Origin: Diplonema japonicum
Taxonomy: Eukaryota > Protista > Euglenozoa: Diplonemea
Assembly: GCA_964019335.1 (NCBI GenBank)
Contig: OZ025742.1
Location: forward strand, 1-64,000
DNA length: 64,000 nucleotides
Direction of reading: 5' to 3'
Shown: positions 622 through 39,371 of the stretch, piece by piece
How the letters are laid out: the number at the start of each line of letters is the position of its first letter
Position numbering within the stretch: position 1 is the stretch's first letter
Program-made: the position numbers and the translations under genes
The notes under the pieces: generated by a model
The model's input: only the letters and a program-made list of their open reading frames with translations
Told to the model about the DNA's origin: nothing
The model's database searches: none

Positions 622-903
622 AAAAGGTGATAAGTTTTTTCCATTTTACCATAATAGATAAGAAAGAAAAAAAAAAGAAAAAAGAAAGTGTTTCCCTATT
701 AAGCCCCCAACCCCCCAATTCGTCTACAAAAAAAAAAAATAATAAAAAAAAAAAAAAAAAAAAAAAACCATAAAAAAAAAAACAAAAACAAAAAAAAAAA
801 CATAAAGAAAATAAAAGAACAAGAGAAAAAAAAAAAAACAACAAAAAAAAAATATAAAAATAAAAAAAAAATAATACACGACGACGACGACGACGACGAC
901 AAC

Positions 904-1140
904 GGGTCACAGCAATGTCATCTCTCTGCGCGAAGGAAGCTCGTACGACTTGGCTACAACTCGCGGCTAAATCCTGGCCGGCCCCGCACGTATAGGGGTG
1001 TCCAAACGGGACAAGGCGTTAGTGGTGGCGACGTAAGGTCTGTTAGGGCCGGCCCCCCCCAAGTCGTACAACCCTATCTTCGAAGACCTGAAGGTAGGGG
1101 TGACCACAAAGGCAGAGTGACATACATGCTGAAACGACCC
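904..1140 (+). promoter_or_regulatory. Nested multi-helix RNA structure upstream of E1 ORF2 (candidate IRES or recoding element)
   Basis: Complementary pairs 943-953/1059-1069 (11 bp perfect), 976-984/1046-1054, 1072-1081/1090-1099, 904-929/1112-1140. Confidence 0.6.
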
Positions 1141-4100
1141 TCGACCACACCGAGAAAGATGCGCAAAGGTTGCGGACCACATGATATGGACATCTTGGCG
1201 TGCGGTGACGTCGAGCAGAACCCGGGGCCAGCCGCGAAAGACGGATGGCTGAAGATAGTCTCGCTGAACGTGAGGTCCCTCAGAGCTAGGAAGGCCGAAA
1301 TCGAGAAGGCTATCGAAGAAACAGCGCCGGACATCCTGTGTCTCCAAGAGACACACCTAACATCAGACGATGCGATCCACGGCTGGTTCGAAGGGTACAG
1401 AGCTTTCCGAAGAGACAGGACGCGACCGAGAAGGAGGAATTTCCCCATAAAAGGGGGCGGCTTACTGACTCTCGTGAAAGAAGGCATCAACGCTAGCGGT
1501 GTCGAAAGGAAGGAGAAGAAAAATGACGTGACGGAAAGACTGGACGTCAAAATATACCCGCCAGGTCAAAAGGAGATCCTCCTGGTGAACATCTACCTTC
1601 CACCAACATCGCCGTCAGATCCGAGCGATGACAGACCGAGCATCGACACCTACTTCAACCCGAACACACTCCCGACAGGGGACAGAACCTTAATCATGGG
1701 GGATTTCAACGCCCACCACCCTCTGTGGGACGGGAGAAGAAAGAAAGAGGACCTCATAGGTGACAAAGTCGCAAAGTGGATGATCGAGAAAGGGATGCGA
1801 CCCTGGAATGACAAAGCCACACCGACACTATTGAACACAAGAGGTTCCTTATCATCACCGGACCTGGTGATAAGCGGGCCAGACATGGACTCTAGATCCT
1901 GGACAACCCTCGATTCATGGGGGTCTGACCACATACCCATGTCCATCCGGATAAGAACGAAATACGAAACCGGACCAACCATTAAGAAATTCAGCTTCAA
2001 AAAAGCTGACTGGGAGGGGTACAGAAATCATCTGGAGTACACCCTGAGGCACCTGCAGAGAACAGGAGACCCGGTCAGGCTAAACAAGCAGTTCACTGAA
2101 GCAGTCAAGGAGGCCGCCAGGCTCTTCATCCCAAGAGGGGGAGCGAGAGGCGGGAAAGCGTGGTGGACTGAAGAGCTGACGCAACTGGTTGGAAGAAGAA
2201 ACGCTCTGAAGAAGGAGATTATGTCGGACATCGGCATCCCATCGATAGAACAATGCGAGAGGCTTGGTGAAATCAGCAGGCAAGTGCAGAAACAGATCGA
2301 TGAAGGGAAGAAAAGAGCGTGGGCCGACTACATGAAGGAGCTGTCTCAGAAAAAGGACTTGGGACACGCTTTCAGGACGATAAAAACGCTCGATGGCAGG
2401 AAGGACAAAGATCCAGTAGCACCACTAATGGCAGGCGGCAAGCTACACACATCGGCGAAGCAAAAAGCAGACGTCCTTGTGGAGCACTACGCAAAGGCTT
2501 TTGCACCCCACCTTAACAAGGACACAAAGAAGATGCTGGACGGTGAAAACAGGAAGTCCAAAGTGATCAAGGACTTGAGGGACAGGGTCACTTGCCCAGG
2601 GATAAGCATGGAGGAACTGAAGCACGCGCTGAGGCAGTTGAAGAAGGGGAAATCCCCGGGCCCAGACGGTGTCTACAACGAGATGCTGAAACACCTGGGG
2701 GGGACGGCCATGGACACATTACTCCATCTGTTCAATATGTCATGGGAGAAGGGAGTGGTACCATCAGACTGGAGGTTCACGCACATAATCCCACTTTACA
2801 AAGGAAAGGGCAAGTCAAGAAGTGATCCGGCATCGTACAGACCGATATCGCTAACCTCCAACATTTCAAAGACAATGGAGAGGATAGTAAAGATAAGGGT
2901 CGACTACCACCAAGACGTGGGAGATGTGAAGAGGGTGCACAAAATGCAGTCAGGTTTCAGGAAAGGGCGCTCCACAGAAGAGAACGTCCTGCAAGTGACC
3001 ACGAAACTGAACCGCATCAGAGACGATGAGTTCTGCGGCGGACTTTTGCTCTTCGACCTGAAAGGAGCCTTCGACACAGTGTGGCACAAGGGTCTAAATG
3101 CGAAAATGAGGAGTAATGGCTACCCGCAAAGAATTACGGACTGGGTGGCCGCTTTCCTAGACCAGAGGATCGCTGCCGTCAAGGTGAGTGGCGAAACAGG
3201 GAAGCACGAACACATAACGGGTGGGGTTCCACAGGGAACCATCCTTGCCCCAACCCTCTTCTCGATCTACATGGACGACCTCTCAGAGACGTTCGAAAAG
3301 GAGGGCATTGATGCCGTGATGTACGCAGACGACATTGCGGTGGTGCTGCACGAAAAAGACCTGGACAGCTTGAATGGAAAACTGATGAAGATCCTGAGGG
3401 TTGTGGAGAGCTGGTGCTCGAGAAACTCGATGGTGATCTCCAAGGGAAAGACAGAGTTCCTTCCCGTTGCTGGCATCTCCTATCCGCAGAGAACACTGAA
3501 GGGGAAGATCAGAGCAACTTTCAAGACCGGCGAAGAACTCGAGGTGGTCGAAAAAACAAAGCTGCTCGGAGTCACCTTCGAGGAGGACATGCTTTTCTCC
3601 GAACACTCCAGAGACGTCTTGGAAAGAGGTGAAAGCAGGGTCAGGCTGCTGAGCTGCCTTGCGGGAACGAGATGGGGTTGCAAGAAGGTGGTGTTGAGGG
3701 CTCTATACCTCACATATGTGCAACCAGTCTTCAGATACTGCTTGGGCGTGTACGGGTCATTTCTCCCGAGCGGGAGGAACACGCCCCACGAAGGCATCAA
3801 GAAGCTTCAATACAGGGCAGCGGTGAAGATCACAGGCTGCATCGCGTCATCAGAGACATTCGCGACACTGAACGAAGCGGGGCTGTGGACCCTGGATGCG
3901 CTGATCGAACACGACAGCCTGTTGCTCTACGAGTCACTGATGAGAAAAGTGGACACCGCCGCATACCAGGCGACTCAGCCTCTGGAGGATCTGACCAGGT
4001 ACGAGAAGCTCCTACCAAGGAGGACTTGGTCTGACAAACAGAGAGAGGCATCGAAAGCCTACAAACTCCCAGAGAGGACGGGCACACCTCACTCGGGCGC

Positions 4101-5109
4101 CGTCTTCATGAGGAGACTCGCGGTTGCACCCTGGCAAAGATTCGAGGGGCAACTCGTGCTCTCCCCCTTCCTAGACACGCAGGTGAAAAGGACGGACCCA
4201 AAAGAGGTCAGGAAAGAGGCAACAACGAACACCCTGAACAGGTTATGCGAGAAACACGGCCGGGCATTCTGCATGGTGTTCACAGACGGGTCCGTAAAGG
4301 ATGGGAAAAACGGAGGCTCGGCCGCCATCCTGCTGCACAACGGGTCCGATGCTGCCTACGGGATCAGCGGTGGACTGTATTCGACATCCTACAAATGCGA
4401 ACTCAGGGCCCTGAGGCTAGGGATCCGACTGGCGACAAGACTCTCAGAGAGGAAGCTTGCAAGCCAAGGGATGGTTCTGATATGCACAGATTCGCAGTCG
4501 GTGATACGGAAGATGTGCCAGGGACACATGTCGGCAGCCTCCAAAGATGACTTCGAACTCTGGCAGGAGGTCGCGAGCTTGACAGGCAGAGGCCACAAGC
4601 TAATCGTTCAATACGTCCCGAGTCACTGCGGGTACAAGTGGAACGAGAAGGCGGACCAGAAGGCAAAAGAGGCGAGCGAAAGACTGGCCCACACCCGTGA
4701 GACAGACATTGAGGTGGTTAAAACTCTGGTGAGGAAGCATGTCATCAGAAGCCACCTCCGCCTATGGAAGGATACTGGCGTCACAAAGACGTACAGGGAG
4801 CAGTTTGCCGGAAGTTACGAGAAGTTCGAGGAGCTGGACAGAAAGAAAGAAGTGGCGATCATGAGGCTGAGGGTGGGGAAGAGCCCACTCACTTGCGGAT
4901 ACCTACTCATACCCCCAGTCGAGGAGGTCCCGTGCCATCTATGTTCGCAACCCCAGACTCTAAGCCACCTCCTACGGGAATGCCAAGACGGAAAGAGGAT
5001 CGACCAAAGGAGTCAGATCTTCGGTAGCTCCCTTCCTTCCCTCAAAGTCCTCCTGTCCACCGACGCCTGTAAGACCGCCCAGCTCTTGGAGCGGCAGGGA
5101 ACATTGTGA
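1126..5109 (+). CDS. E1 ORF2: 2A peptide + APE endonuclease + reverse transcriptase + RNase H + CCHC knuckle (intact; frame open from 703)
   Basis: DILACGDVEQNPGP; SLNV, LQETHL, GDFNAHH, SDH; PGPDG, YRPISL, GVPQG, YADD; FTDGS, TDSQS, SHCG..NEKAD; CHLC..HLLREC. Confidence 0.95.
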   Translation: MLKRPSTTPRKMRKGCGPHDMDILACGDVEQNPGPAAKDGWLKIVSLNVRSLRARKAEIEKAIEETAPDILCLQETHLTSDDAIHGWFEGYRAFRRDRTRPRRRNFPIKGGGLLTLVKEGINASGVERKEKKNDVTERLDVKIYPPGQKEILLVNIYLPPTSPSDPSDDRPSIDTYFNPNTLPTGDRTLIMGDFNAHHPLWDGRRKKEDLIGDKVAKWMIEKGMRPWNDKATPTLLNTRGSLSSPDLVISGPDMDSRSWTTLDSWGSDHIPMSIRIRTKYETGPTIKKFSFKKADWEGYRNHLEYTLRHLQRTGDPVRLNKQFTEAVKEAARLFIPRGGARGGKAWWTEELTQLVGRRNALKKEIMSDIGIPSIEQCERLGEISRQVQKQIDEGKKRAWADYMKELSQKKDLGHAFRTIKTLDGRKDKDPVAPLMAGGKLHTSAKQKADVLVEHYAKAFAPHLNKDTKKMLDGENRKSKVIKDLRDRVTCPGISMEELKHALRQLKKGKSPGPDGVYNEMLKHLGGTAMDTLLHLFNMSWEKGVVPSDWRFTHIIPLYKGKGKSRSDPASYRPISLTSNISKTMERIVKIRVDYHQDVGDVKRVHKMQSGFRKGRSTEENVLQVTTKLNRIRDDEFCGGLLLFDLKGAFDTVWHKGLNAKMRSNGYPQRITDWVAAFLDQRIAAVKVSGETGKHEHITGGVPQGTILAPTLFSIYMDDLSETFEKEGIDAVMYADDIAVVLHEKDLDSLNGKLMKILRVVESWCSRNSMVISKGKTEFLPVAGISYPQRTLKGKIRATFKTGEELEVVEKTKLLGVTFEEDMLFSEHSRDVLERGESRVRLLSCLAGTRWGCKKVVLRALYLTYVQPVFRYCLGVYGSFLPSGRNTPHEGIKKLQYRAAVKITGCIASSETFATLNEAGLWTLDALIEHDSLLLYESLMRKVDTAAYQATQPLEDLTRYEKLLPRRTWSDKQREASKAYKLPERTGTPHSGAVFMRRLAVAPWQRFEGQLVLSPFLDTQVKRTDPKEVRKEATTNTLNRLCEKHGRAFCMVFTDGSVKDGKNGGSAAILLHNGSDAAYGISGGLYSTSYKCELRALRLGIRLATRLSERKLASQGMVLICTDSQSVIRKMCQGHMSAASKDDFELWQEVASLTGRGHKLIVQYVPSHCGYKWNEKADQKAKEASERLAHTRETDIEVVKTLVRKHVIRSHLRLWKDTGVTKTYREQFAGSYEKFEELDRKKEVAIMRLRVGKSPLTCGYLLIPPVEEVPCHLCSQPQTLSHLLRECQDGKRIDQRSQIFGSSLPSLKVLLSTDACKTAQLLERQGTL
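1168..1230 (+). other. Canonical 2A (StopGo) motif GDVEQNPG/P
   Basis: Exact D(V/I)ExNPGP consensus directly before the APE domain. Confidence 0.9.
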
Positions 5110-5316: not shown

Positions 5317-7963
5317 CGTAACGTAGAGAGACCGCAGAGTGTCCCTCTTGCTGCCCCAGGACGTGCCAGACAAGAGCTTCAGCACCCTCAGCCTTTTGCT
5401 GGCCCGCCGTAGGATGTCCTGTGCGTGTTCACCGAACGTGAGCCCAGAGTCCACCGTTACCCCAAGGTACCTCGCGTGTTCAGACAGAGGCAGGGGACGG
5501 GCCGCAACGTAGTCCACGTCGGGCCGTCGCACGGCTGCATGCATGTCCCGCACGCAGCGGATCCGCACACCACCCGCCTCCACAACCTGAAGGCCCGCCA
5601 GCTCCTGGTCCCCGGAGATCGTGCCATCGGCGTTCACCCCCAGGCCGAAGAGTGGGTTCTGGAAGGCACCTGGCTGAAGGGGGACTCGTGACGAAGTGAA
5701 GTAGACCCCGAGACGTTTCTGGGGGGGGACGCAGACTGCCTGCGTCTTGGACGTGCTCAGCAGCATGTCACGCTCCCTGCACCAGTCCTCAACCGCATCC
5801 ACCACTGCCTGCGCCTTCCGCTCCAGCCCAGCCACGTCCCCTTGTCCAGAGGAGATCACAACCGCCACGTCGTCGGCGTAGAGCACCGAGACGTCCGCCA
5901 GTCCCTCCAGTCTCCTGGCGAGTTCGTCGACGTAGATGGTGTACAGGATGGGACCCAAGACAGAGCCCTGGGGGACACCCCGTCGCACCTTCGTCGTCGA
6001 CCCCCTCGACCGTCCAATCGTGACCGCAGCAGTACGGCCGCATAGAAAGGACCGCGTCCACTCCACGAAGGGTTCGGGGAGACCCTTCCCTCGCATCTTG
6101 TCCAGCAGGGCACCATGGGGCACCAGGTCGAAGGCAGAAGAGAAGTCGAACAGCAGAGCGGCCGAGAGACGTCGATCGTCTTTGTTCCTCGACATGCACT
6201 CAGTGAGGGTTGCCACCTGCTCCTCCGTGGAGCGGCCGCGTCTGAAACCAGCCTGGCTGTCGTGGAGTCCCTCGACTCCCGTCCCGTCCGCGTCAAGAAG
6301 AAACGTGAGCCTCTCCTCGATCATCCTCTCCAGCAGCTTGCAGAGGCAGCTGGTCAGGCAGATCGGCCGGTAGGAAGCCAAGAGAGTCGCATCTTTTCCA
6401 GGTTTCGGTACCGGGACGATCACTCCCTTCTTCCAGGCGCCGGGAACAACACCCATCAGCCAGGAGCGATTGAGGAGTAGAAGGAGGACAGGGAGTCCGA
6501 GTTCAGGTGTAGGAGCATCTCCGAGAAGATTCCGTCTTCCCCGGCCGCGCTGCGCGTCTTCATCCTTCTCAGGCCGCGGGTGAGGTCGTCCACGGTGAAC
6601 GCTTGACACCCGAGTCTGCTTGCAGAAGGAGCGGCGTCCTTCGAGTTCCCGTCACCACGCCTGCCGTAGAGCTTAGCGAAGTGCGCCCCCAGCCGGTCGG
6701 CCTTCGCCTTGTCCGACACAAATCTTCCCTCGAGTACAGGAAGGTGTGTCTTTCGGTGCCTGCCGTCCAGCTTCTTCACCGCTCTGAACGCAGCCCCGAG
6801 GTCCTTGCTCCGGCTGAGGTCGGCCGCCATCCTTCCCCATGCCTCACGCTTCGTCTCGTCAAGAAGTCGGTTGACTTCTTTCACCTTCGCCCTGTACTCC
6901 TCCACCACGTCCGCCTCTTGAAGCAGGAGTTCGCGCAGGGTGTTCCGCTCTTCGAAGGCGTCCTCGAGCTCAGCAGTCCACCAGGGGGTCGGGCCACGTC
7001 GCATCCCACAGAGGGGAATGTGGTCGTTCGCCGCAGTCAAAAGGGCTTGTGTAAACCCCTTCGTGACAGAGTCAATCGGAGCCGCCGTGTCAACACCAGC
7101 AAGCAGGCGGGCAACAGCAGCAGTGTAGTCGTCCCACCTGGCTTTTTTGAAATTCCAGGTGGGGAAGGGGCGCTCCGAACGGTAGACGTCCTCAAGAGGC
7201 AGGTGAAAGGATACGGGACTATGATCGGAGCCCCACGTGCCCAGCGTCTTCGGCTCAAGCTTCGCGCAGCGCCCCACAACCAGGTCCAGAACGTGTCGTG
7301 ACGAGTCCCTCGTCGGTTCGTTGCGGTCGTTGTAGACGGAGTACCCGTGGGTGTCCAGCCAGTCCCTGACCACGTTCCCCCTCTCGTTCGGCGTCGTCAC
7401 CGTGGCGTCCCAGGAGCTGTGGTGAGCCAGTCACCCGCTATGACTGTGTTCTTCCCCATGGGAAGGCTGCCAGGCCGCAGGTACTCAGGGTCCCTCGTGC
7501 CTCTGCCCGCGCTTACCGGTGTAAGGTAAACGTTGGAGAGAGTGATCGGCTCACGCTTCTCGCAGGAGATCCTCACATCCAGTCTCTCAGTGACACAGTC
7601 CCCAGCCGGGAGTACGTGCGGAACCTCCTCCGAGGCAAGATCGTCGCGGACATACGTGACAATACCACCACCCCTCGTCGCAGTGCCGTCAGTCACCGGT
7701 GTCAACCGATCCCTCCTGTATGACCTGTACCCAGGCAGGTGTGGCGTGTCGTGCCCTTCCCTCAGGTGCGTCTCCTGTATCATGATGATGTCCAGCGACA
7801 AGAAGTCAGCATGGCGAGATACGACGGTCCATTTCGCAACGAGGCCGTTGCAGTTCCACGAGACAACCTTGAGACCCTTAGGCGACGGGGGCGGCAGCTT
7901 CTTGGGTGGGCCAGGGTTTGTTTCGACCAGCCCAAGCAGCCCCAGCAGGTCCCTGACGGACAT
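5317..7963 (-). pseudogene. E2 ORF2 (2A-like, APE, RT) with frameshifts at ~7428 and ~6495, truncated before RNase H
   Basis: ORFs 7397-7963, 6456-7400 and 5314-6609 align consecutively to E3 ORF2; GDFNAHH motif broken by a small deletion. Confidence 0.9.
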
Positions 7964-8104
7964 CCTCCCGAGTAGGGTGGGGATCAGTGCAGAAAAGTCG
8001 GTGAAGAAACAGAGAGGTAGGAGTCTCCTGGGGAGGATGCGAGGGAGACTAGGAGAGGGAGCATGGTCGTAGATCTGCTGCTCCCCCTGTTCTGCGGGGC
8101 CCCT
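7907..8104 (-). other. In-frame post-UGA linker + 2A-like motif (LLGLVETNPG/P) of E2
   Basis: 47 sense codons after the ORF1 TGA run in frame into MSVRDLLGLLGLVETNPGP. Confidence 0.8.
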
Positions 8105-10966
8105 TCAATTGGATGGACCCATGGAGGCAGAGCGCCCCTTGACCCCATTGGTGAAGAGATCTTTGGTCTCCGCGAACGACCTGGCCCGCCCCCTCGTACC
8201 CAGGTTCGTCACCGCAGCCTCAGAGGTCGTAGCGAGAGGAGGAGCCCCCTTCTTCCCCTTCCCCTTCCCTTTCCAGACACTGTCGTGTGTCGTCGTCGCC
8301 CCCGGTGTAGGGTCCCGCGGCACTGCCGTTCCCGTCGTCAGCGTGGCCGCCTGCGGCAGGAGGAGGCGGAGCGTCGTCCGCAGATCGGAGATCATCTCCT
8401 GCTGAGAGTCGATCGTCCTCTGCAGCCCGACGATCGACTCCTTCAGCGTGGCGACGAGCTCAGTGAGAGCGGCGACCTCAGGCGACCCGGAAGGGACCCC
8501 CTCCTTGTTTCCCCCAGACACGTTGCGGGGCGGTGTAGGGGACGTCACAGTGTCGAGCTGGGGGGGAGCCACCGAGCTCGGTATGGACGCCCACGGGCTG
8601 GTGGGAGGAAGCCCAGTTGCTTTCACCGCAGGGTCAGTCCCCGAGGGTGTCGACGCCGATACAGGTGCCGGGTCAGGTACAGGTGTAGGCGCAGGTGCAG
8701 GTACATGAGAAGATGTGGGTGCCGGGGTCGAGGACGTTGCAAGCGCAGGTGCAGATGCAGGTGTCGTCCTGTTGATGAGAGGGGGCGGCTTGACGGTCGG
8801 GTGGTCGTCCGCATCACGGAGGCAGACAAGGCGCCCCCCAAGGAGCCACGTCCTGGACTTCGGGGGCGGGCCGTCGACGACGATGAAGAACACGAGTTGC
8901 CTCGTGCCCTGGAACATCGTCTGCGTGCGTCGCAGGACGGAGGATGGTTTCCAGCCGATGTGGTCCATCATTTCATCGAAGGCCGCCCTGGTGATGGACG
9001 GCGGGGCCCCGGTGAGCAAAAACTTGCGCTTCGTACGCAGTTTTGCGAGGGTTTCCCGGAGCCGCTGTTCCGTCTCCGGTAGGCACCGCACAGTCCATCC
9101 CTTACGGTGCGCCACCCCGAGAGACAACCCACCCAGCGTCCCCGCAATCCGAAAGGCATCCGCCCTCCCTTCCGCCACGATGGGTACATAAGCGTACCCC
9201 CCGCGTCTCTCCGTCGTCCGGATCATGCACCCGTCCCCGGACCGGCGCAGGACGGCGTGGACGTGTGCTGCTTGCAGGCGCAGTCCCACCTCGTGGGTCC
9301 AGTGCCTCGCCCGCGGTTCCTCCTCACCGAACTTCCTTGGGCGGAAGACCGCACGATCCTCCACCACCGCGCCCTGAGCCTTGGCGAGCTCCAGGACCCT
9401 GGCCTTCGCCTCCTTCAGGCTGTCTGCACTGACACAGACGTAGACGACCTCCGATCCGCTGTTGAAGGTGGAAGGCGGGGTGTAGGTGGGGGGGTCCAGC
9501 CCGAACGTGGAGACGTGGACCCTCCTGTTCACTGCGCGCGACCCAGAGACCATGACAATCTCGCTGGGGGTGGTGACACCGGGGACCTCTGTCATAAGGA
9601 CAAAGGTGATGGATGCCGTAGGTAACGCGGAGCACACGACCCCCATTCCGGAGGGATCGTCGAGCGCAATGACAGCGCGGGATGTTTCCGTCGGGGGGGA
9701 CACGTTGGTGTAGATCGGGGCGTCCCATGTGTCTGGCACCAGGTCCCATCGCGGGGTTGTGGAAGGGGCAGGGGCAGGGTCGTCCTCCATCTCCTCAGGG
9801 CCAGAGCTGGTGTCAGAGTCTGAGCTGAGGAGGAGCGTGCCTTGGTCTGTTGACGCGTTGGCGGAAGCGTTCGCGACTGCTTCGTCCTCGACCTTCTGGG
9901 CATCTGCCTTCTTGGCGGCCGCCAACCTCAAAGCTTCCTCCTTTTTGGCAGCGGCTGCGGCGGCTTCCTTTTCGGCGGCGGCGGTGGCTGCGACCTTCTT
10001 CTTCTCCTCGGCGGCGGCGGCTGCGGCTGCGGTCTCCTTCTCGGCGGCGGCGGCGGCGGCTGCAGCTTTCTTCCTGGCGGCGTCGGCTGCGGCCTTCCTC
10101 TCGGCGGCGGCGGCGGCGGCTGCTGCTTTCTTCTCGGCGGCGGCCTTCTCCTCGGCGGCGGCGGCGGCTGCTGCTTTCTTCTCGGCGGCGGCGGCGGCTG
10201 CGGCTTTCTTCTTCTCGGCTGCAGCGGCTGCGGCTGTAGCCTTCTTCTCCTCGGCTGCTTTCATCTCGGCCGCAGCACGCGCAGCCTCCTTCTCCTCTGC
10301 CGCAAGTCGTGCAGTAGACCGCTCGCGCAGAGCCTTCTCCTCAGCCTCGACTGCTCTGCGAGCAGCCTCCACACCAGCCACGCGTGCAGCTTCCGTCTCG
10401 GCTGCCATTTTGACAACCGCAGCATCAGCCACCTCCTGCGCAGCCTTCATCTTAGCTGCTATTTCTGCAGCTACCACGTCGGCCGACTCGCGTGCAGCTT
10501 CCAAATCAGCAGCGATTCCCGCGAGTTCGACGTCGGCCGCAGTGCGTGCGGCTTCGAGGGGGTGTGTGGCGTCAGCTTTGTGTGCGGCTTCGGCGGCAGC
10601 GTCAGCGCGCGCGGCTCTGGCGGCCTTCCTCCTAGCTTTCTTGCTGGAGGTCGGGGTGGCGACGCTGGCGTCAGGCGAAACCGGCCTTTTGACGGAGCCG
10701 GTCGGGGTGGAGGCGACAGGTGTCGCTGGGCCGGCTGTAGCGGCGGCGGCGTCGGGCGTGAGGAGGTCAATCACGGTGACCACCCCCGTCATCTTCTCCC
10801 GGTGCTCCGGCGTCAGGAGCTGCCCCAGCTCCCCGGCTGCTCCCGCGCTGCGGAGCATCCTCTCCACCCGCCGCTCCTCCCTGGCCTTGGACTGCGCCAG
10901 CTGCGTGCTGGCCCCGTTCCCTTCCGGCTTTGCCTTCTCCTTGTGCTTGTCTTTCTTCTTGCCCAT
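8105..10966 (-). CDS. E2 ORF1 (Ala/Lys/Glu-rich coiled coil, central RRM-like region, coiled coil, basic tail)
   Basis: 953-aa ORF with ATG after an A-run; AAAAAEKK repeats; central domain homologous to E3 and E4 ORF1. Confidence 0.85.
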   Translation of the reverse strand: MGKKKDKHKEKAKPEGNGASTQLAQSKAREERRVERMLRSAGAAGELGQLLTPEHREKMTGVVTVIDLLTPDAAAATAGPATPVASTPTGSVKRPVSPDASVATPTSSKKARRKAARAARADAAAEAAHKADATHPLEAARTAADVELAGIAADLEAARESADVVAAEIAAKMKAAQEVADAAVVKMAAETEAARVAGVEAARRAVEAEEKALRERSTARLAAEEKEAARAAAEMKAAEEKKATAAAAAAEKKKAAAAAAAEKKAAAAAAAEEKAAAEKKAAAAAAAAERKAAADAARKKAAAAAAAAEKETAAAAAAAEEKKKVAATAAAEKEAAAAAAKKEEALRLAAAKKADAQKVEDEAVANASANASTDQGTLLLSSDSDTSSGPEEMEDDPAPAPSTTPRWDLVPDTWDAPIYTNVSPPTETSRAVIALDDPSGMGVVCSALPTASITFVLMTEVPGVTTPSEIVMVSGSRAVNRRVHVSTFGLDPPTYTPPSTFNSGSEVVYVCVSADSLKEAKARVLELAKAQGAVVEDRAVFRPRKFGEEEPRARHWTHEVGLRLQAAHVHAVLRRSGDGCMIRTTERRGGYAYVPIVAEGRADAFRIAGTLGGLSLGVAHRKGWTVRCLPETEQRLRETLAKLRTKRKFLLTGAPPSITRAAFDEMMDHIGWKPSSVLRRTQTMFQGTRQLVFFIVVDGPPPKSRTWLLGGRLVCLRDADDHPTVKPPPLINRTTPASAPALATSSTPAPTSSHVPAPAPTPVPDPAPVSASTPSGTDPAVKATGLPPTSPWASIPSSVAPPQLDTVTSPTPPRNVSGGNKEGVPSGSPEVAALTELVATLKESIVGLQRTIDSQQEMISDLRTTLRLLLPQAATLTTGTAVPRDPTPGATTTHDSVWKGKGKGKKGAPPLATTSEAAVTNLGTRGRARSFAETKDLFTNGVKGRSASMGPSN

Positions 10967-11731
10967 TTTTCTTTTCTTTTCTTTTACAATTTTTTTTTTT
11001 TTTTTTTTTCAAAATACCAATAGGTGCCACCATGGGGGAGCAACACCTGGGAAGGGGAAAGGTGAAGGGAAGCATGGAAATATTACAGGGAGGGCGAAGA
11101 CCAGTTCTTCTGCAATCAGATGGAGCTGTGGACTCCGCCAACCCGTGCACCTGTTTGGAACAGCCGAAGAGGGCTGAATTACTTTAATTCCAAGCCGCGT
11201 AGACCTACGTGACTCGGACGGGGACCTTGACCCCAGTTCGTCGTTTTTCTCAACTGGGACCTCTGGTGACCGGAACTGGCCCCGGTCGCCCCCTCGAGAG
11301 GGATTTGCTCCATTGAGCGAAACATGAAAGGGTGAGAGTAAAATCTCTCAAAATCAAAAGGGGAAGCGAGTGTGCGTGTGCGCATGGGGATGATAGGGGA
11401 AGCATTTGCTCTCCCCGCTGCACTCCGGCAGGCGGGGGGAGGGGATGGCCGTACCACACTCGTTCGTGCGAAGATGAGAGGACTCATCTTGGCAACTTCA
11501 GAGTAGGCCGGGTCATCCGTTTTTGACTACAATGTCAGGGCACACGATAACAAGAGGATGTTAATTTTAAAAAATTTTTAAAATTTAAAAAGTTTAAAGG
11601 GGGACGGGCATACTGGTAAGAGAAGGCCAGACGCCGGATGATGATAAAGAAAAGGATGAGAGGGAGTGGAAGAGAGGGGAAGGGAACGTAAGCACTAAAA
11701 GAATTGAAATGTTGATCTCACCCTACTCACT

Positions 11732-14700
11732 TCAGCGCAACACGGGGGCCGCAGGGCCGGCGTCAAGGGAGACAGCCGGCGGGATGAACGAAGGGGCAGC
11801 GGTACCTGCCGTTGCCGCAGACGGCGACGTGAAGACCCCGGATCTGGCCCAGTCAAGCAAGCCAGAGTCGGCGATGAGGGTGAATACCTGCGTCACGCGT
11901 TTTGACAGGCACTCCACCAGCGAGGGGCGTCCATTGGGAGCGTCGAGCGAACCCCGTCCAACCACAGCGCACCCCCCAACAACGTGCTCCCTGGACATCC
12001 GAGCTCCACACGCTGGACAGCTGAGCTCAGCCTTCTTCCTGTTCGGTCCAGCCGCCTGCAGGAAGCCGAAGAAGAGAGCGGAGTGCCCTACCCTCAGCCG
12101 CGAGATGACCGTCTCCGCTAGCCTGGGGAGGGACTGGGGGAAGCACGCCGCTCGGAGCCCCGTGGCCCTCGCGTACCTCGGGGCCACCTCCCCGACAATG
12201 ACCGCAGACCTCTGCTGAATCTGGCGACGGACCAGGGCCCTGACCGACCTGTAGTCGAGAGAGGGGCGAGTCAGCTCGCGCTTCGTGCCCTCCCCGGCCA
12301 GCCTGTCTGCCGCCTCGTTGCCAGGAACCCCGCAGTGGGACGGCACAAACTGGAGAATTACTGGTGCACCTTGTGCACGTGCCGCGGCCACCAGCAGTTC
12401 CCAGGTCTCGTGGTCGAGCCTCTCCCTCTGCCGCGAAGGACCTGCCCTCAGCTGATCAAGGAGAGAGAGCGAGTCGGTACAGATCGACAGCCGGCTGTCT
12501 GCCAACGTGGGGTGCTCGCTCCGGAGCGCGGCCACCATGTCCAGAGCCACCTTGACAGCCAGACCCTCCGCCCGAAAGGAAGAGCAGAAATTGCTGACGC
12601 CGAAGCTCTCGGACACGGGTTCGTGGGGGCGGGGGAGCTGCAAGTAGACCCCGGCGCCGCCCCTCCACCTCTGGCGGTCCCGTACGACAGAACCATCCGT
12701 ATAGGCATGGATACCCGGTGGAAGGGCAGCCAGAGCCTCCACGGCCGCCTTCCGCTTATCCACGTCCGGCGACGAACGCGTGACCCTGCCGGGAAGGGCA
12801 GTTCTGAACTCCACCAGGAACGCGTGCCACGGTGCTACTTTGGGCGAGGCAGTCAGTAGCTCGAAGGTGTCGTACTTCCTGAAGCCTTCCTGCGTCGTCC
12901 ACCCCTGCAGTCCGCAGCGTCGTAGCGCAAGGATACCCGCACGCAGCCACCCATTGCCCATACCGGTCATCCGCTTCTGCTCAAGGACCTCGCGGTGAAC
13001 CGGGGAGGTCCTCCAGCAGAACGACTTCGCCGTCAACACCGCCGCAGCTCCCTCAGCCATCTGTCGGAGGGGTAGCAGACCTGCCTCAGCAACAACCTTC
13101 GCCGTGCCCGAGCCGTGCCAACAACCCGAGATCAGCACCGCCGCTCTCTGGTGGAGCCCAACAAGCTCCTCCACCCTGCTGTCCCTGAGCCTGGCAAAGT
13201 AAACACCCATGCAGTACCGGAGTAGCGGGAGAACGTACGTGAGGTACAGAGATCGGAGCGTGGCCTTCTTGCACCCCCAGGTCGTGCCCGACAGGAGCCT
13301 TAGTACCCTCAGCCTCTTGTCAGCGCGCCTCAGGACATCCCCCGCATGCTCGTCAAACGTGAGCCCAGAGTCTACAGTGACCCCAAGATACTTCGCCGAC
13401 CCACACAGAGGCAAGGGGCGAGCCGCCATGTAACCAATGTCGGACCTCCGGATGGCGGCGGGAATGTCGAAGGACCGTTTGCCACCCGCCTCCACGACCC
13501 GAAAGCCAGACAGCTCACGGACGCCAGACAAGGTCCCACAGGCCCCAACCCCAAGATTAAGGACAGGGTCCTGGAAGGCCCCCGGGCAAAGCGGGACACG
13601 CGACGAAGAGAAGTAGACATTAAGCCGCTTCTGATAGGGAACGCACACTGCCTGCGACTTGCTGGAGCTCAGCAGCATGCCCCGTCTCCCACACCAGCCC
13701 TCAACCGCGTCCATCACAGCCTGGGCCCCTCGCTCAAGACCAGCCAGGTCGCCCTGCCCGGCTGAGACCACCACCGCAACATCGTCGGCATAAAGAACCG
13801 ACAGGTCCGCCATCCCAACCAGCAACCTGGCTAGCTCGTCGACGTAGATGGTGTAAAGGACGGGTCCCAGCACAGACCCTTGGGGCACCCCTCTCCTCAC
13901 CTTCGTCGTCGACCCTCGCGAACGACCCACCGTGACCGCCGCCGTACGACCGCAGAGGAAGGAGCGCGTCCATTCGACGAAGGGCTCAGGGATCCCTTTC
14001 CTCCGCATCATGCCCAAGAGAGCTTCGTGCTGAACCAGGTCAAACGCAGATGAGAAGTCAAACAGCAGGGCAGCCGACAGACGCCGACTGTCTTTGTTCC
14101 TCGACAGGCACCCGGTCAGGGACGCCACCTGCTCCTCCGTGGAGCGGCCCCTCCTGAAGCCAGCCTGGCTGTCGTGGAGACTCTCAACGCCCGACGCGCT
14201 AGAGTCTAGGAGAAAGGTAAGCCTCTCCTCTATCATCCTCTCAAGCAGCTTACAAAGACAGCTAGTGAGACATATGGGACGGTACGATGCAAGCAACGTG
14301 GCGTCCTTCCCTGCCTTCGCCACTGGAACAATCACCCCCTTCTTCCAGGCACCCGGCACGATCCCCGCCTGCCATGAGCGATTGAGGAGCAGAAGTAGAA
14401 CCCCGAGCGAGGGTTGGTCGAGGTGGAGAAGCATCTCCGCGAAGATGCCATCATCACCCGCTGCACTGCGTGTCTTCATCCTTCCCAGACCGCGGGTGAG
14501 ATCATACACCGTAAAGGCGTGGCACCCAAGCACGTTCGTCGAAGGAGCTACGTCCACCGCGTCCCCATCACCACCCTGGCCGTAGAGCTTGCCGAAGTGA
14601 GCCCCCAGGCGGTCGGCTTTCGCCTTGTCCGTCACGAACCTCCCCTCGAGAATGGGAAGGTGCGGTCTGCGGTGTCTGCCGTCCAGCTTCTTCACCGCCC

Positions 14701-15898
14701 TAAACGCAGACCCGAGGTCCTTGCTCCGACTGAGGTCAGCCGCCATCTCACCCCAGGCCGCGCGCTTCGACTCGGTCATGAGTTGGTTTACCTCCTTGAC
14801 CTTCGCCTTGTAGACCGCCGCCACGCTGTCGTCCTCAGTCTCAGCCGACTTGAGGAAGCGATCCCGCAGGGCGTTCCGTTCTTCGAAGGCGTCTTCGAGT
14901 TCGGCCGTCCACCAGGGGGTCGGGCCTCGTCGCACTCCGCAAAGCGGAATGTGGTCGTCAGCTGCATGCAGAAGAGCCTCTGTAACCTCCTTCGTGAAGG
15001 AGTCAATGTGGGCCTTCGTGTCGATCTTGGTCAGAAGGGCAGCGGCGGCCGCGGTGAAGTCGTCCCACCTGGCCTTTTTGAAGTTCCAGGTAGGGCAGGG
15101 TCGCTCCGAGCAGTAGGCGTCCTCAAGCGGCAGGCGGAAGGAAACCGGGCTGTGATCAGAGCCCCACGTCCCCAACGTCCTCGGCTCCAGTTCCGCACAA
15201 CGTCCCACCACCAGGTCCAGAACGCATGGCGGTGAGTCCCGCGTCGGCTCGTCACGGTTGTTGTAGACCGTGTAGCCGTGGGTGTCAAGCCAGTCCCTGA
15301 CCACGTTCCCCCTTTCGTTGGGCGTTGTCACCTTGGCATCCCAAGAGCTGTGGTGTGCGTTGAAGTCGCCAGCAACGATCGTGTTCTTCCCCACAGGTAG
15401 GCTGCCCGGCCGTAGGTACTCGGGGTCCCTTGTCCCTCTGCTTATACTCACAGGCGTGAGGTACACGTTGGAGAGGGTGACCGGGACGCGCTTCACACAG
15501 GAGATCCTCACGTCTAATCGCTCAGTGACACTGTCACCTTCAGGGAGTACGAAAGGAGCTTCCTCCGAGGCAAGGCAGTCACGGACATACGTGATGACAC
15601 CACCGCCTCTCGTCGCAGAGCCGTCCGTCACCGGTGTTGTGCGGTCCCTCCTGTAGGACGTGTATCCAGGCAGGTATGGTGTCTCATGCCCCTCCCTAAG
15701 GTGTGTCTCCTGGATCATAATGATATCCAGCGTCAGTAGGACAGCGTGGTAGGACACGGTTGACCACTTGGCGGCAAGACCGTTGCAGTTCCAGGACAGG
15801 ACCCTGAGTCCCTTCGGCTTCGGGGGTGGGAGCTTCTTAGGTGGACCGGGGTTCGTCTCAACCAGCCCAAGCAGCCCCAGCAGGTCCCTGGCCGACAT
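11732..15898 (-). CDS. E3 ORF2: 2A-like + APE + RT + RNase H + CCHC (frame open upstream to 16039)
   Basis: LVETNPGP; SWNCNG, QETHL, GDFNAHH, SDH; YRPICL, GVPQG, YADD; YTDGS, TDSLS, SHCG..GNEAAD; CPAC..HVVGGC. Confidence 0.95.
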   Translation of the reverse strand: MSARDLLGLLGLVETNPGPPKKLPPPKPKGLRVLSWNCNGLAAKWSTVSYHAVLLTLDIIMIQETHLREGHETPYLPGYTSYRRDRTTPVTDGSATRGGGVITYVRDCLASEEAPFVLPEGDSVTERLDVRISCVKRVPVTLSNVYLTPVSISRGTRDPEYLRPGSLPVGKNTIVAGDFNAHHSSWDAKVTTPNERGNVVRDWLDTHGYTVYNNRDEPTRDSPPCVLDLVVGRCAELEPRTLGTWGSDHSPVSFRLPLEDAYCSERPCPTWNFKKARWDDFTAAAAALLTKIDTKAHIDSFTKEVTEALLHAADDHIPLCGVRRGPTPWWTAELEDAFEERNALRDRFLKSAETEDDSVAAVYKAKVKEVNQLMTESKRAAWGEMAADLSRSKDLGSAFRAVKKLDGRHRRPHLPILEGRFVTDKAKADRLGAHFGKLYGQGGDGDAVDVAPSTNVLGCHAFTVYDLTRGLGRMKTRSAAGDDGIFAEMLLHLDQPSLGVLLLLLNRSWQAGIVPGAWKKGVIVPVAKAGKDATLLASYRPICLTSCLCKLLERMIEERLTFLLDSSASGVESLHDSQAGFRRGRSTEEQVASLTGCLSRNKDSRRLSAALLFDFSSAFDLVQHEALLGMMRRKGIPEPFVEWTRSFLCGRTAAVTVGRSRGSTTKVRRGVPQGSVLGPVLYTIYVDELARLLVGMADLSVLYADDVAVVVSAGQGDLAGLERGAQAVMDAVEGWCGRRGMLLSSSKSQAVCVPYQKRLNVYFSSSRVPLCPGAFQDPVLNLGVGACGTLSGVRELSGFRVVEAGGKRSFDIPAAIRRSDIGYMAARPLPLCGSAKYLGVTVDSGLTFDEHAGDVLRRADKRLRVLRLLSGTTWGCKKATLRSLYLTYVLPLLRYCMGVYFARLRDSRVEELVGLHQRAAVLISGCWHGSGTAKVVAEAGLLPLRQMAEGAAAVLTAKSFCWRTSPVHREVLEQKRMTGMGNGWLRAGILALRRCGLQGWTTQEGFRKYDTFELLTASPKVAPWHAFLVEFRTALPGRVTRSSPDVDKRKAAVEALAALPPGIHAYTDGSVVRDRQRWRGGAGVYLQLPRPHEPVSESFGVSNFCSSFRAEGLAVKVALDMVAALRSEHPTLADSRLSICTDSLSLLDQLRAGPSRQRERLDHETWELLVAAARAQGAPVILQFVPSHCGVPGNEAADRLAGEGTKRELTRPSLDYRSVRALVRRQIQQRSAVIVGEVAPRYARATGLRAACFPQSLPRLAETVISRLRVGHSALFFGFLQAAGPNRKKAELSCPACGARMSREHVVGGCAVVGRGSLDAPNGRPSLVECLSKRVTQVFTLIADSGLLDWARSGVFTSPSAATAGTAAPSFIPPAVSLDAGPAAPVLR

Positions 15899-16039
15899 CC
15901 GTTCAAGTAAGGAAGGGATCAAGGAAGGGAGGACGTCGTACAAGTGATGTGGAAGGTGTCTCCTCGGCTGTATGCGCGGGAGACCAGGAGAGGGGGCGTG
16001 GTCGTCGATCTGACGCCCCCCCTGCTCAGCGGGACCCCT

Positions 16040-17170
16040 TCAATTGGCAGGGGCGGGGGCCGGGCCCACAGAGGCTGCCCGTCCACGGCCGGCCCCGTTG
16101 GGGGAAGCAGAGTCGCCAGCCAGCGACTGGGCGCGTCCCCTTCCGCCCCCTTGCTCCGTCGATGTCGGGTAGGGGCCTGGCGTGCTTACGCCCTGCGCCT
16201 GGTGCCCCTTCGTCCCTGCCTTGGACCCAGCCTTGCCGCCCTTGCCCTTCCCAGCAACTGCCGTCCGCCCAGCTCCGTCTGCAGATGACGCCGGCGCGCC
16301 AAGTGACGCTGCCATCTTCTCCTGGAGGTCGCGGACCGTCGCCTGCAGACCGTCGATGGTCGCCTGCATCGACTGGATCAGCGCGAGGAGCGCCGGGACC
16401 TCAGGTTCCGGTGCGGGATTCTTCTTCTGGGAGTCACGGGGAGGTGTCGTGGTCGGGGAAGCCGCAGAGGAGACCGGAGTCACAGTGCCAAGTGGCGGAG
16501 GGGCAACAGAGCTCGGTGGAGATGACCACGGATTGGTGCTCGGCAGCCCTGTGGACTGCACCGTGGGGCCAGGGGCCGGCGTCGGCGTCTGGGCCGTGGT
16601 TGCCGCAACCGGCGTCCGAGCCGCGGGTGGAGCCTTCTTGTTGGTGCGGGGCGGGAGCGTGACGCTCGGGTGGTCCTCCGCGTCGTGCAGTCGAACGAGA
16701 CGAGAGCCGAAGAGCCATGTCCTGGCCTTGGGGGGCGGGGCGTCGGCGACGATGAAGAACACGAGTTGCCTCGTGCCCTGGAACGCCGTGTCAGAGCGTC
16801 GGATGATGGACGACGGCTTCCAACCGATGTGGTCCATCATCCCGTCGAAGGCTGCCCTGGTAACAGACAGCGGGGCTCCGGTGAGCAGGTACCGTCGCTT
16901 TGTCCTCTGCTTGGCGAGGGCCTCCCTCAGACGCTGCTCCGTCTCCGGCAGGCACCTCACGGTCCAACCCTTGCGATGGGCCACCCCCAGGGACAACCCG
17001 CCCAGTGCCTTCGCCAGCTGGAAGGCCTCCGCCCTCCCCTCCGCTACGATGGGCACGTAGGTGTACCCCCCGCGCCGCTCGGTCGTCCTGACCATGCAGC
17101 CGTCGCCCGAGGCCCGGAGTACCGCATGGACGGATGCCGCTGGGAGCCGCAGGCCCACCTCGTGGCTCCA
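16040..17170 (-). CDS. E3 ORF1, 3' part (5'-truncated)
   Basis: Aligns to the C-terminal part of E2 ORF1 from WTHEVGLRL onward; ends AAT-TGA as in E2. Confidence 0.85.
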   Translation of the reverse strand, partial: WSHEVGLRLPAASVHAVLRASGDGCMVRTTERRGGYTYVPIVAEGRAEAFQLAKALGGLSLGVAHRKGWTVRCLPETEQRLREALAKQRTKRRYLLTGAPLSVTRAAFDGMMDHIGWKPSSIIRRSDTAFQGTRQLVFFIVADAPPPKARTWLFGSRLVRLHDAEDHPSVTLPPRTNKKAPPAARTPVAATTAQTPTPAPGPTVQSTGLPSTNPWSSPPSSVAPPPLGTVTPVSSAASPTTTPPRDSQKKNPAPEPEVPALLALIQSMQATIDGLQATVRDLQEKMAASLGAPASSADGAGRTAVAGKGKGGKAGSKAGTKGHQAQGVSTPGPYPTSTEQGGGRGRAQSLAGDSASPNGAGRGRAASVGPAPAPAN

Positions 17171-20100
17171 ACCAGCAGCGGTCAGCACGCAGGAAATTAT
17201 GGAGAACTTGGTCGCAGCAGGCGGCGATACAACGGGCAATAAAGCTAAGAAACCCACAGCTGCCACCACGGCCCTCCATCTAGAACTGTCTTCCCTCCTG
17301 AAGGCTGTCCAACGCGCGCTGCTGGACAAGGATCTGGAGGGCAGGTCCAAGACCCACGGTCCCGACGGTATCCGACTAAAGCGGTACTGGATCGTCGACT
17401 CGGCCGAGAACGTAGCTGCGGATATCAAGCAGCAGTACACAACTTACAAAAGCCTGTCCCCTGCCACGTACGACTTCCGGGACATGTACACCAACCTCGA
17501 CCAAGGGCGTCTGAAAGAGGGGGTTCGTAAAGCAGTCCAAGAAGCGTTCGACTTTACCGGCAAGAACCTCACCCGTGGCAAGGACGGGAGCTCCTTCACA
17601 GATGCCGACGAGGACGATGTCTACACCCCGGAACGGATCCATAAGCTCCTGGACCTCGTCGTTGACACCTATGTTGTGCAGGGTGGCCGCGCCGTTCGTC
17701 AAGTAAAGGGTATCCCCATGGGTGGGAACGCCTCCCCCGACCTGGCGAACCTGTTCTGCTACGCCGTGGAGGCCGCATACATCGACAAGCTCCTCGCCGA
17801 AGAGGACTGGGAGACCTTGAAACGCTACTGCAACGCGTGTCGCTACATCGACGACTTCCTGTTGTGGAGCACTGCGCCACCCCCGGAGGAGCTTTATGGC
17901 ATGGCTTATGTAAAGACCTCTTCAGACCCATGCGACGTCCCCTTTATCGGGATTCGCATCCGGATAGAGCGCCACGAACAAGCTAAGCACAACTATATTA
18001 GACTTAGCATTAACGATAAGGCGCAGAACTGGCGCTTCCGGCCTACGCGGTTCACCCACGGGCACACCGCGGCGCCCACCACCCAGGGACCAGGCATCTT
18101 CAAGGGCATGGTCATCCGTGCCTGCGCCCTGACCAACAACATCGCGGACCTCAAACGGGAGATCGCTTCAGTGATCTACCTGCTCCTAGATCGCGGTCAC
18201 GACAAGGGCGGCCTGCGGAAAGCGTACAACGCCTTCCTTATCGAACGCGTGGATCGACGCTTCGCCATGGAGAAAAGCAACCTGCTGGCCTTCTTCACGC
18301 AAGTCCTCCACCGATACGACGCCAAAGCCCCGGTAGATTCTTGGTTGCCGGAAAAAACGTACATAGGCCCCAAGAAACCCCGTGCGCTTCCCACGGACGA
18401 CTCCTCGGACGACTCCTCAGCTGACTCCTCAGTCGTCTCCTCAGTCGCCTTCTCGGGGGGCCCCTCAGACGAGCCCTCGGACAGTTCCTCGGACAGCTCT
18501 TCAGGTCTTGTCGAACCGTCACAACCCCGAGCAGCCTCCGTGGTCTCACCATCTGGTGTCACGGACCAGGTTTTTTCGCCCCCCATCAACCTGCACACCA
18601 ACAGCGGGGAAGGTCGCCTGGGCCTGGAATGCGGCTGGGCCGTCATAAACTGGTTGGCGGACTATGCTGGTGTGGACCGCATCCCCTTCTCTACAATGCA
18701 GGAGATCCAGGAGATGTACCACGGCTTCTCACGACTCATCTCCCCTTCCAGCACTGATGAAGCGCCCGATCCTCTTGGCAACTTTTCCCGCTCGACCTTG
18801 TCACGTGCTTGCCTCATGGTCGTTGGTGCAAACTTGGAGGTCTTCCGTGCGGGCATGAAAGAAAGCCCCTGCTTGATCGTTGGTCCCTTGAAACGAAGTC
18901 TCAGCGGCCACTGGTTCATCGCTCTCAGGAAGAAGGGAAGGTACATGGTCAAAGACACCGACGTACGGCTAAGGCTCCAGAGCTTCAAACACATCTGCGC
19001 GACATACTCCGAACACAACATCCTCTGCATCCCAGACGATGTGTGGGCCAGGACAACCCCAGGCAGGAAACACAACACACGTGTTCTAGACCCTGAGGCT
19101 GAGTTTCGCCAGTTTGAGCCGGTCATCACCCCGGCGGCACCCCAGGTAAGCGACTCGAGCGCGCGAAAGACTGAGACCGCTCTCAACACCCCGGAAGATC
19201 GCACCCTCCTAACTTATGTCACCCTAGCTGCAGCTATAGCTACATATGCCGCACGCACCCGACGGCTCGACACAGGAGTCGCCGCATCAGGTGTGGACGC
19301 ACACACCGCTCACTTCGGGCGGCCCGTCGCCACCGCCATCGTAGCCCTAGCTGCCGCCGTGGCCGCGCGAGCCGTGCACACCGGATGCTCTGTCACCACC
19401 ACGTCTACGGCAAGCCAGACTAACGTGGTCGGAACTGTCCCGCTCTTCCTGAAGGTCTCGAGTCTGCACAAGTCTACACCACAGACAGCAGTCGCAACCT
19501 GTCAGACGGACCGTGTCACAGCACCTGTACTGTTCTCGATATCATCGACGCTCCAGACGGATCCTCCCAGCAGTAGACTGCCCCCGATGGACGCCGGACT
19601 GGGGTCGCCCTCGGCCGCGGCGGTCAGACTTACGAAGTCTGTCGAAATTCCGACGCCCCGCGCGACCCTGTCGAGGCGGCCGGTTACTGAGCCTCGGTTG
19701 ACACCATGCCTTCCACCGCCAACGGACGTGTCATCCACCCAGCTCGCGGCCTGCACTCAGTCCACCCGTCGGGACACCGGACACGGGAGTGACACACCGA
19801 TGCCGTCGTCTACCATGGGACACGCGACACTCCAACCAGTGGTCGGCTCCCAGATTGTGACAACGTCGGCTGTGGAGTCATCGCTCGCCCGAGCCGTGAC
19901 AACGCCCGTTCTGGCAGACGCCCCCCTCGGCGCCCGCCAGGTACAGCTCACTCCTTGCATCCAGTCCGTCCATGAGAACATCGGACTCGGGATGGATACG
20001 CCGATGGCTCCCGCCATGGGACACGCGACGCTTCAACCGGTGGTCAACGCCCAGAGAGACACGACGCTGACCCTGGAGCCGCCCGTGGCCCGAGCCGAGG

Positions 20101-35066: not shown

Positions 35067-35206
35067 TTTAAGGCGACAATAGGAACGAAAGCTGTGTTCC
35101 AGAAGGGGAGCATTAATAGATACGAGCTCAGGCCACGTGAGGCTGTCCTCAGGTGGGATTTTCTTTTTCTATGAGTTTTTTTTTTTTTTTTTCTTTTTTT
35201 TTTTTT
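35067..35206 (+). repeat. Diverged 5'-truncated copy of the E4 3' end with T-tail
   Basis: Aligns to 34394-34523 (aaggcgacaataggaacgaa..gagcattaatagata..gaggctgtcctc..ctatgagttttt). Confidence 0.85.
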
Positions 35207-39275: not shown

Positions 39276-39371
39276 TCCATCTTTTCTTTTTGCAGTTTTC
39301 TTTCTTCTTGCTCCTTTTTTTTACTGACATGCAACCTTATCCATCCCTCACACTCAGGTACCTCCACAACA

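Follow-up and report, generated by a model that had tools for sequence, protein, structure and literature searches.

The window, the whole 64,000-nt stretch of Diplonema japonicum DNA analyzed here, is eukaryotic and carries many retroelements, including LINE copies that we label E1–E2–E3–E4. E2 and E3, both on the minus strand, are non-LTR retrotransposons (LINEs) whose ORF2 proteins are 75% identical; 53% of synonymous sites differ between them, a corrected distance of ~0.9. E2 ORF2 matches a protein labelled Diplonema japonicum piecewise at 93–99.7% identity. In both elements ORF1 and ORF2 occupy a single frame with one UGA between them, and the stop is followed by a linker, a 2A-like peptide, and the APE-RT region.

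E2 ORF1 (8108–10966, minus strand; 953 aa) comprises an Ala/Lys/Glu-rich N-terminal part and a conserved domain, and it ends at the in-frame UGA (8105–8107; context AAU-UGA-AGG). Downstream lie a 16-nt spacer (8089–8104; codons R-G-P-A-E and the first base of Q), hairpin 1 (8054–8088; +17 to +51 after the UGA, 10 bp, 15-nt loop), and helix 2 (8023–8049; GUCUCC/GGAGAC, +56 to +82), which is invariant and, in E2, context dependent. These features fall within the 47-codon linker (7964–8104), which runs from the UGA to the first shared AUG and, read in the ORF1/ORF2 frame, is under purifying selection. The segment from that AUG (codon 48) through the 2A-like peptide ending LLGLLGLVETNPG-P spans 7907–7963, and ORF2 (APE, RT) spans 5317–7906, matching ending at 5317; this copy of ORF2 is damaged by two frame breaks, near 7427 and at 6435–6495.

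E3, on the same strand, has a 5′-truncated ORF1 (16043–17170), a UGA in the identical context AAU-UGA-AGG (16040–16042), hairpin 1 with 11 bp and a 13-nt loop (15989–16023), and helix 2 (GUCUCC/GGAGAC; 15958–15984). Its frame past the UGA is intact (11732–16039; 1435 aa) and encodes the linker, the 2A-like peptide (15898–15842), APE, RT, and RNase H. Longer E3 copies exist, since contigs join E3 ORF1 to E2-like upstream ORF1 sequence. The start of E2 adjoins the E3 3′ region and an A-run (10966–11732, minus strand), so that the two form a tandem pair of related families.

No Pfam family was found for E2 ORF1. The predicted fold of its conserved domain (pLDDT 76.5) is weakly tandem-RRM-like, with RRM proteins in the top rows; at E ≤ 0.001 no PDB entry matched. 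A profile search with the domain (8750–9730, minus strand) returned 40 relatives (E ≤ 0.001), and those looked up include proteins labelled Diplonema and Breviolum. APE-RT fused to such a relative was seen in none of the 18 of 40 examined, a set outside which P0056 (a Breviolum gene model of 2677 aa) falls.

Host genes in the window end in UAA, UAG, and UGA—an ABC-transporter-like ORF, for example, ends in UGA at 49520—and UGA is therefore a normal stop in this host. Codon reassignment is thereby ruled out, as is frameshifting, given that ORF1 and ORF2 share a frame. The UGA and the frame across it have survived a synonymous distance of ~0.9. Contigs came from four public runs of unrecorded kind; they have no bearing on expression, and their depth was not used as copy number. 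At 80% likeness, the contigs of the four runs held the E2 and E3 families only. Both of the two records spanning the E3 junction (15780–16140) match it with 0 differences. The two records spanning the E2 junction carry 8 substitutions each, every one outside 7961–8107, and 4 gap letters besides, whose positions are unplaced among the matches listed. Among the matches listed (for E2, 15 of 28), none has a joint that skips the UGA of E3 or E2. Retention of the stop in the contigs, together with the coding constraint on the linker described next, rules out a copy-specific nonsense mutation.

Just upstream of the UGA, E2 and E3 have no gap-free alignment; from the stop onward, each codon of one copy has its counterpart in the other. 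In-frame similarity begins at the stop, 3 of the 29 codons before the last Asn being synonymous matches. The first AUG common to both copies is codon 48, at +142, with none earlier within 140 nt. Across linker codons 1–47, synonymous differences far outnumber nonsynonymous ones (pS 0.57, pN 0.19; Fisher P = 3 × 10−5). Codons 1–30 (pS 0.47, pN 0.10) resemble the APE domain (0.53, 0.11), and third positions hold 12 of their 18 differences; within the spacer, codons 1–5 show 3 synonymous and 0 nonsynonymous changes. Codons 31–39 are unconstrained (pS 0.64, pN 0.53), and codons 40–47 are again constrained (pS 0.82, pN 0.12; P = 0.001). The remaining two frames of the linker have no such pS/pN pattern. 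Because an untranslated RNA would not spare codon positions 1 and 2 while the third drifts, we consider the linker very likely translated, judging from its pattern of substitution.

A distant LINE, E4 (27742–33327, plus strand), repeats this order in frame: ORF1, UGA, linker, NPGP, APE, with no AUG ahead of the APE. Its ORF1 domain is homologous to that of E2 (22% identity), its RT is only 24% identical, and its in-frame stop is UGA-CAU (UGA at 30094–30096). From the UGA to NPGP are 62 codons; the first in-frame AUG is codon 100, inside the APE. This shared in-frame layout supports crossing of the stop as a family habit. No hairpin follows the E4 UGA-C (z +0.4 to +1.0), and the hairpin is therefore not universal. 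One reading, drawn from two lineages, is that UGA-A would need a structure where UGA-C does not. The wider E4 region (27742–34450, plus strand) encodes an ORF1 with a weak OTU-like N terminus, a Ser-rich linker, VDGIEPNPGP, and APE-RT. A two-codon mini-ORF in the +1 frame (AUG-AAG-UGA) begins 1 nt past the E4 stop, and from about 33161 the C-terminal part lies in a different frame.

The codon-48 AUG offers a different entry to ORF2, by scanning reinitiation or on a separate trans-spliced mRNA, with the linker kept as untranslated RNA and a hairpin that would serve initiation or the selection of splice sites. Both copies have kept this AUG, which precedes NPG-P by 18 codons; the linker is pyrimidine-rich; and essentially every Diplonema mRNA has a trans-spliced leader (PMC10161547). 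Such a start leaves unexplained the synonymous excess upstream of the AUG, including that in codons 40–47; in E3, no AG occurs from +80 up to the AUG (+142), and E4 has no AUG where this account needs one, ahead of the APE. We rate initiation at codon 48 as improbable.

For one D. japonicum Trinity gene, transcript-derived proteins comprise an ORF1 ending …GPSN and an ORF2 beginning at the codon-48 Met; this evidence, which consists of protein sequences and the source's names and not of the transcripts themselves, fits transcripts that keep the stop. Among 4711 candidates for longer proteins containing the linker, one was recovered, and it begins at codon 48, which is weak evidence against fused forms. 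These data bear on a further alternative, very improbable in our judgment: removal of the stop within a cis-spliced intron whose 3′ end is the AG directly behind the UGA, so that upstream ORF1 is joined to the linker, or decoding of the UGA as selenocysteine. Both copies conserve the AG at +1/+2. The transcript-derived ORF1 proteins nevertheless end at the UGA, and retrotransposition of spliced RNA would leave stop-less copies, of which none was found (weak evidence). For selenocysteine, neither a SECIS nor any other Rfam match lies over the hairpin or the E3 3′ region, and no SECIS match appeared at E up to 1. The Rfam search over 34.5 kb (500–35000) gave 3 weak hits, all below gathering score, including chance-level DUF3800-XI hits on the NPGP region.

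Additional junction DNA was sought in other collections. Of 511 pattern matches in metagenomes, a single one survived tblastn and proved to be an unrelated NPGP-APE element; three scans of viral contigs yielded 0 loci, and prokaryote genomes yielded 1 chance match without the hairpin.

A preliminary description of this DNA had placed a stem-loop 16 nt after the UGA in E2, with a counterpart in E3, two compensatory base-pair changes between them, and altered amino acids on the 5′ arm; each of these observations was reproduced. The E2 arms (8088–8079 and 8063–8054) form 10 bp with one G-U, and the E3 arms, from 16023 and to 15989, form 11 bp. At pairs 7 and 10, E2 has A-U where E3 has G-C, and the other 8 of the 10 pairs are invariant. 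The 5′-arm changes (GAG>GGG, CAG>CGT) are nonsynonymous, and the 3′-arm changes (CAT>CAC, GCT>GCC) are synonymous.

Hairpin 1 stands out locally. It is the longest local helix common to both copies over 2875 aligned ORF2 columns; among 535 ORF1 columns, a single invariant helix equals it at 10 bp. Among 22 local sense helices of at least 7 bp it alone has 2 compensatory pairs; among the antisense helices (n = 21), 2 such pairs occur only in its own mirror. In consensus folding of 40-nt windows it ranks best of 666 (−18.85; mean −5.1, SD 3.6), with the runner-up close at −18.3; in 60- and 100-nt windows the junction lies outside the top 8. Its mean pair probability is 0.84–0.98 in E2 and 0.71–0.82 in E3, in 6 of 6 windows each. 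The folding z score is about −3 for a 35-nt cut, which was chosen post hoc, −0.7 and −1.2 over 111 nt, and ~0 over 145 nt, values that mark the wider region as not unusually stable; in the 145-nt minimum-energy fold of E3, the 5′ arm pairs elsewhere.

The compensatory changes were set against several backgrounds. In simulation, all 10 pairs were kept with at least 2 compensatory changes at a chance of 4 × 10−4 to 6 × 10−4; with the helix kept as given, at least 2 compensatory changes arose in 2–6%. At least 2 also occur in 7 of 255 other shared helices (at least 8 bp, any distance), a background of ~3%. The hairpin 1 score was reached by 138 of 500 column shuffles, a control to which two rows give no power. 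The stem codons have a pS of 0.31 (8 sites) vs. 0.53, and this rise in synonymous conservation is not significant. Because only two sequences carry the hairpin, its covariation is suggestive and below significance. We judge it quite likely that hairpin 1 is under selection, and the comparison of the two copies makes it a likely conserved RNA element.

An alternative fold had also been proposed, in which a conserved UCUCCU/AGGAGA helix overlaps the 3′ arm. That sequence is present in both copies, yet its pair probability is 0.00 in 12 of 12 folds. The second helix predicted instead is GUCUCC(+56)/GGAGAC(+82), which does not overlap the hairpin 1 stem. All 6 of its pairs are invariant. Its pair probability is 0.93–0.99 in E3; in E2 it is 0.79–0.97 in 2 of 6 windows (the short ones) and at most 0.04 in the other 4. 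Two pairings of the spacer were rejected. Spacer positions +5 to +13 can pair with 7279–7271 (15210–15202 in E3) with 2 compensatory pairs, but this is 1 of 7 such cases among 131 sense helices, and the long-range pairing is therefore within chance. Pairing of +1 to +13 with +157 to +171 appears in short windows only and is gone in wider ones. A search for pseudoknots by shared helices found no loop-borne shared helix of at least 8 bp among the 20 strongest listed.

Immediately before the APE, both copies encode a 2A-like peptide with the core GLVETNPGP, in which L replaces the conserved D; it fits neither the D(V/I)ExNPGP nor the GxExNPGP core. Leucines at −13, −12, −10, and −9 match the Leu-rich 2A pattern at −13 to −10. 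A GLVExNPGP peptide was classed "falloff only" in a published screen (PMC13405545). Skipping is uncertain because the conserved Asp is absent and this similar core gave falloff only; we see the peptide as equally likely to skip or not, and it could instead damp ORF2p further. Codons 51–59 (E2 7954–7928, E3 15889–15863, minus strand) show 0 of 9 synonymous changes where 4.5 are expected. This is the best of 914 overlapping ORF2 windows (P = 0.0017), not significant once corrected, and gives a hint of a possible second RNA-level signal. The same segment is able to pair with the NPGP-coding region or the post-stop spacer.

Two relatives illustrate other 2A arrangements. E1 (703–5109, plus strand) has an intact APE-RT-RNase H, 30% identical to E3 ORF2, and a consensus-type 2A, CGDVEQNPGP, ending at 1230; upstream ORF1 homology is absent within the window. 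P0002 (labelled Diplonema ambulator) is a related ORF2 with tandem 2A-like motifs, CGDVHKNPGP and CGDVHRHPGP, set around a partially duplicated APE. The annotated Met of this protein lies just 14 residues ahead of the first NPG-P, which hints at translation from upstream.

We propose the following model of expression. Most ribosomes would stop at the UGA and yield abundant ORF1p, and a minority, helped by the hairpin, would read through with insertion of an amino acid; Trp is favored at UGA-A in yeast (PMC4748822). The readthrough ribosomes would translate the 47-codon linker and reach the 2A-like LLGLLGLVETNPG-P just before the APE, where skipping would free a scarce APE-RT-RNase H ORF2p, with an N-terminal proline, from ORF1p. 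Readthrough of the UGA would thus set a low ORF2p:ORF1p ratio. As a whole, the chain of hairpin-aided readthrough, linker translation, and 2A-like release, built from the sequence features above, is in our view just on the favorable side of even. Several findings count against it: The +4 base is A and not the leaky C, the strongest peak of synonymous conservation is at codons 51–59 and not at the stem, the conserved in-frame codon-48 AUG offers an ordinary start, E4 has no hairpin, and linker codons 31–39 are unconstrained.

The preliminary description had taken the hairpin for a readthrough-stimulating element like the 3′ structures of viral readthrough sites. Readthrough of the UGA is supported by the linker constraint, the stop kept in contigs, and ORF1 ends alike; the stimulatory role that would go with it we place at even chances. 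The viral likeness extends to a UGA before the polymerase and a compensatory stem and breaks down at the 16-nt spacer and the +4 base A. Type II viral examples include alphavirus nsP3-nsP4, the tobra-, furo-, and pomovirus replicases, and coltivirus VP9 (PMC3159437, PMC3542737). As there, an in-frame UGA precedes the polymerase, and a 10–12-bp 3′ stem carries compensatory A-U/G-C changes (in E2/E3, 2 of 10 pairs across two sequences). Unlike type II sites, E2/E3 have UGA-AGG and not UGA-CGG or UGA-CUA, a 16-nt and not a 7–9-nt spacer, and a compact 13–15-nt loop; because context and spacer fail the defining features, we do not class the junction as type II. Type III (gammaretrovirus-like) sites differ in having UAG and an 8-nt purine-rich spacer, where E2/E3 have UGA and 16 nt. 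3′ stems can raise UGA readthrough up to 10-fold, with viral stimulators starting after a 7–9-nt spacer (PMC3159437), whereas hairpin 1 starts at +17; the ribosomal entry channel holds ~11–12 nt 3′ of the A-site codon (PMC13517186).

This distance also favors an account in which local context or a distant element drives readthrough and the hairpin serves packaging, spacing ahead of the 2A pause, or RNA stability, or is a by-product of G-/C-rich codons. The hairpin-less E4 and the 7 of 255 other helices with as many compensatory changes agree with it, as does the precedent of Candida albicans Tca2, whose conserved pseudoknot region between gag and pol did not direct readthrough of the UGA in Saccharomyces cerevisiae (PMC2194720). 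Like E2/E3, Tca2 is a retrotransposon in which a UGA divides two ORFs of one frame, the spacer has a purine-rich start, and a 3′ structure is conserved; it differs in being an LTR element with an 8-nt spacer and a pseudoknot. Its failure in yeast is a caution for the E2/E3 junction. A hairpin without a stimulatory role must still be squared with the best shared local helix of ~3400 aligned nt sitting <20 nt from the stop, and with both compensatory changes costing amino-acid changes on the 5′ arm. We find this account unlikely, though less so than the other alternatives weighed here.

After terminating at the UGA, ribosomes could instead begin again there or immediately downstream, using a non-AUG codon, with the hairpin holding them in place in a SART1- or mammalian L1-like manner. 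The coding signal in the linker is equally well explained by such a restart, and 16 nt is similar to the spacing from which hairpins promote recognition of start codons. Termination–reinitiation is the documented route to ORF2 in SART1 and L1, unconventional in mammalian L1 (PMC5972666, PMC10275272); at the UAAUG stop-start coupling of SART1, ORF2 translation depends on structure 3′ of the ORF1 stop (PMC3894237, PMC5972666, PMC10275272, PMC3708506). E2 and E3 are likewise non-LTR elements with RNA structure 3′ of the ORF1 stop. In SART1, however, the overlapping AUG lies in another frame, whereas E2/E3 keep one frame, have no overlapping stop-start, and share no AUG within 140 nt. A restart does not need a shared frame, yet E2, E3, and E4 all have one, and a 2A would be more clearly useful if an ORF1p fusion must be split. 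Weighing these points, we regard a restart as distinctly unlikely; the arrangement of frame and start codons suggests that ribosomes probably reach the linker by readthrough.

Published work treats the translation of ORF2 from bicistronic LINE RNA as an unanswered question (PMC3894237, PMC3708506). On sequence grounds, the ORF1 stop was suggested to be read through in the Group 3 non-LTR retrotransposons of Paramecium tetraurelia (PMC5405496), which are also APE-RT LINEs with ORF1 and ORF2 in one frame across one stop. Readthrough between LINE ORFs has thus already been proposed, and the idea is not new. The Paramecium account, in its accessible text, concerns a ciliate clade and, unlike the E2/E3 case, names no 3′ hairpin, linker selection test, or 2A. 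New here are the quantified coding signal past the stop, the compact hairpin, which has compensatory pairs and lies unusually far from the stop, and the downstream 2A-like peptide.

The ORF2 end of the element invites comparison with the Ingi clade, whose elements lack ORF1 (PMC3708506) and, in Ingi/L1Tc, have an N-terminal 2A (PMC3708506, PMC12278014, PMC3894237). E2/E3 resemble Ingi/L1Tc in carrying APE-RT-RNase H in one ORF (E3) and a 2A-like peptide just before the APE. Unlike Ingi, they have a 953-aa ORF1 in frame upstream (E2) and GLVETNPGP in place of GD(V/I)ExNPGP. The Ingi-type 5′ Pr77 signature with an HDV-like ribozyme gave no Rfam hit in 500–35000. A few CR1 elements are known to combine ORF1 with a 2A, and fusions of the form ORF1-2A-ORF2 have been observed in a pseudoscorpion; for neither does the accessible text describe a readthrough stop (PMC13405545). 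We found no published account of this layout in diplonemids in a search that did not extend to Repbase, to subscription journals, or to the supplementary files of the Diplonema genome paper, all of which may bear on the point.

A broader and more tentative possibility, which we think doubtful, is that two viral-style recoding steps lie within 200 nt—hairpin-stimulated UGA-A readthrough from +17 and a variant 2A—and that this cassette let an Ingi-like single-ORF element gain an ORF1 common to a distant LINE lineage. If so, the stimulator would act outside the accepted 7–9-nt window, readthrough would set the amount of enzyme, and a 2A with L for D would split off ORF1p. Being short, with two natural variants, a coding signal, and a built-in release peptide, the junction lends itself to reporter assays of LINE readthrough, of a hairpin acting from unusually far away, and of a 2A that departs from the consensus.

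Elsewhere in the window, a 1387-codon ORF (17061–21224, plus strand) with a weak RT match (E = 2 × 10−4) and no APE meets E3 head to head at the latter's truncated 5′ end. Cys-rich membrane-anchored proteins are encoded at 39264–44165 and 23446–26415 (both plus strand); the former is composed of identical 1128-bp repeats with a 564-bp sub-period, and at least 300 bp of the latter recur at 38386. A 36-bp tandem repeat occupies 46117–46440, and a short inverted duplicate beside A/T runs (94% over 52 nt) links 34952–35069 and 58639–58716.
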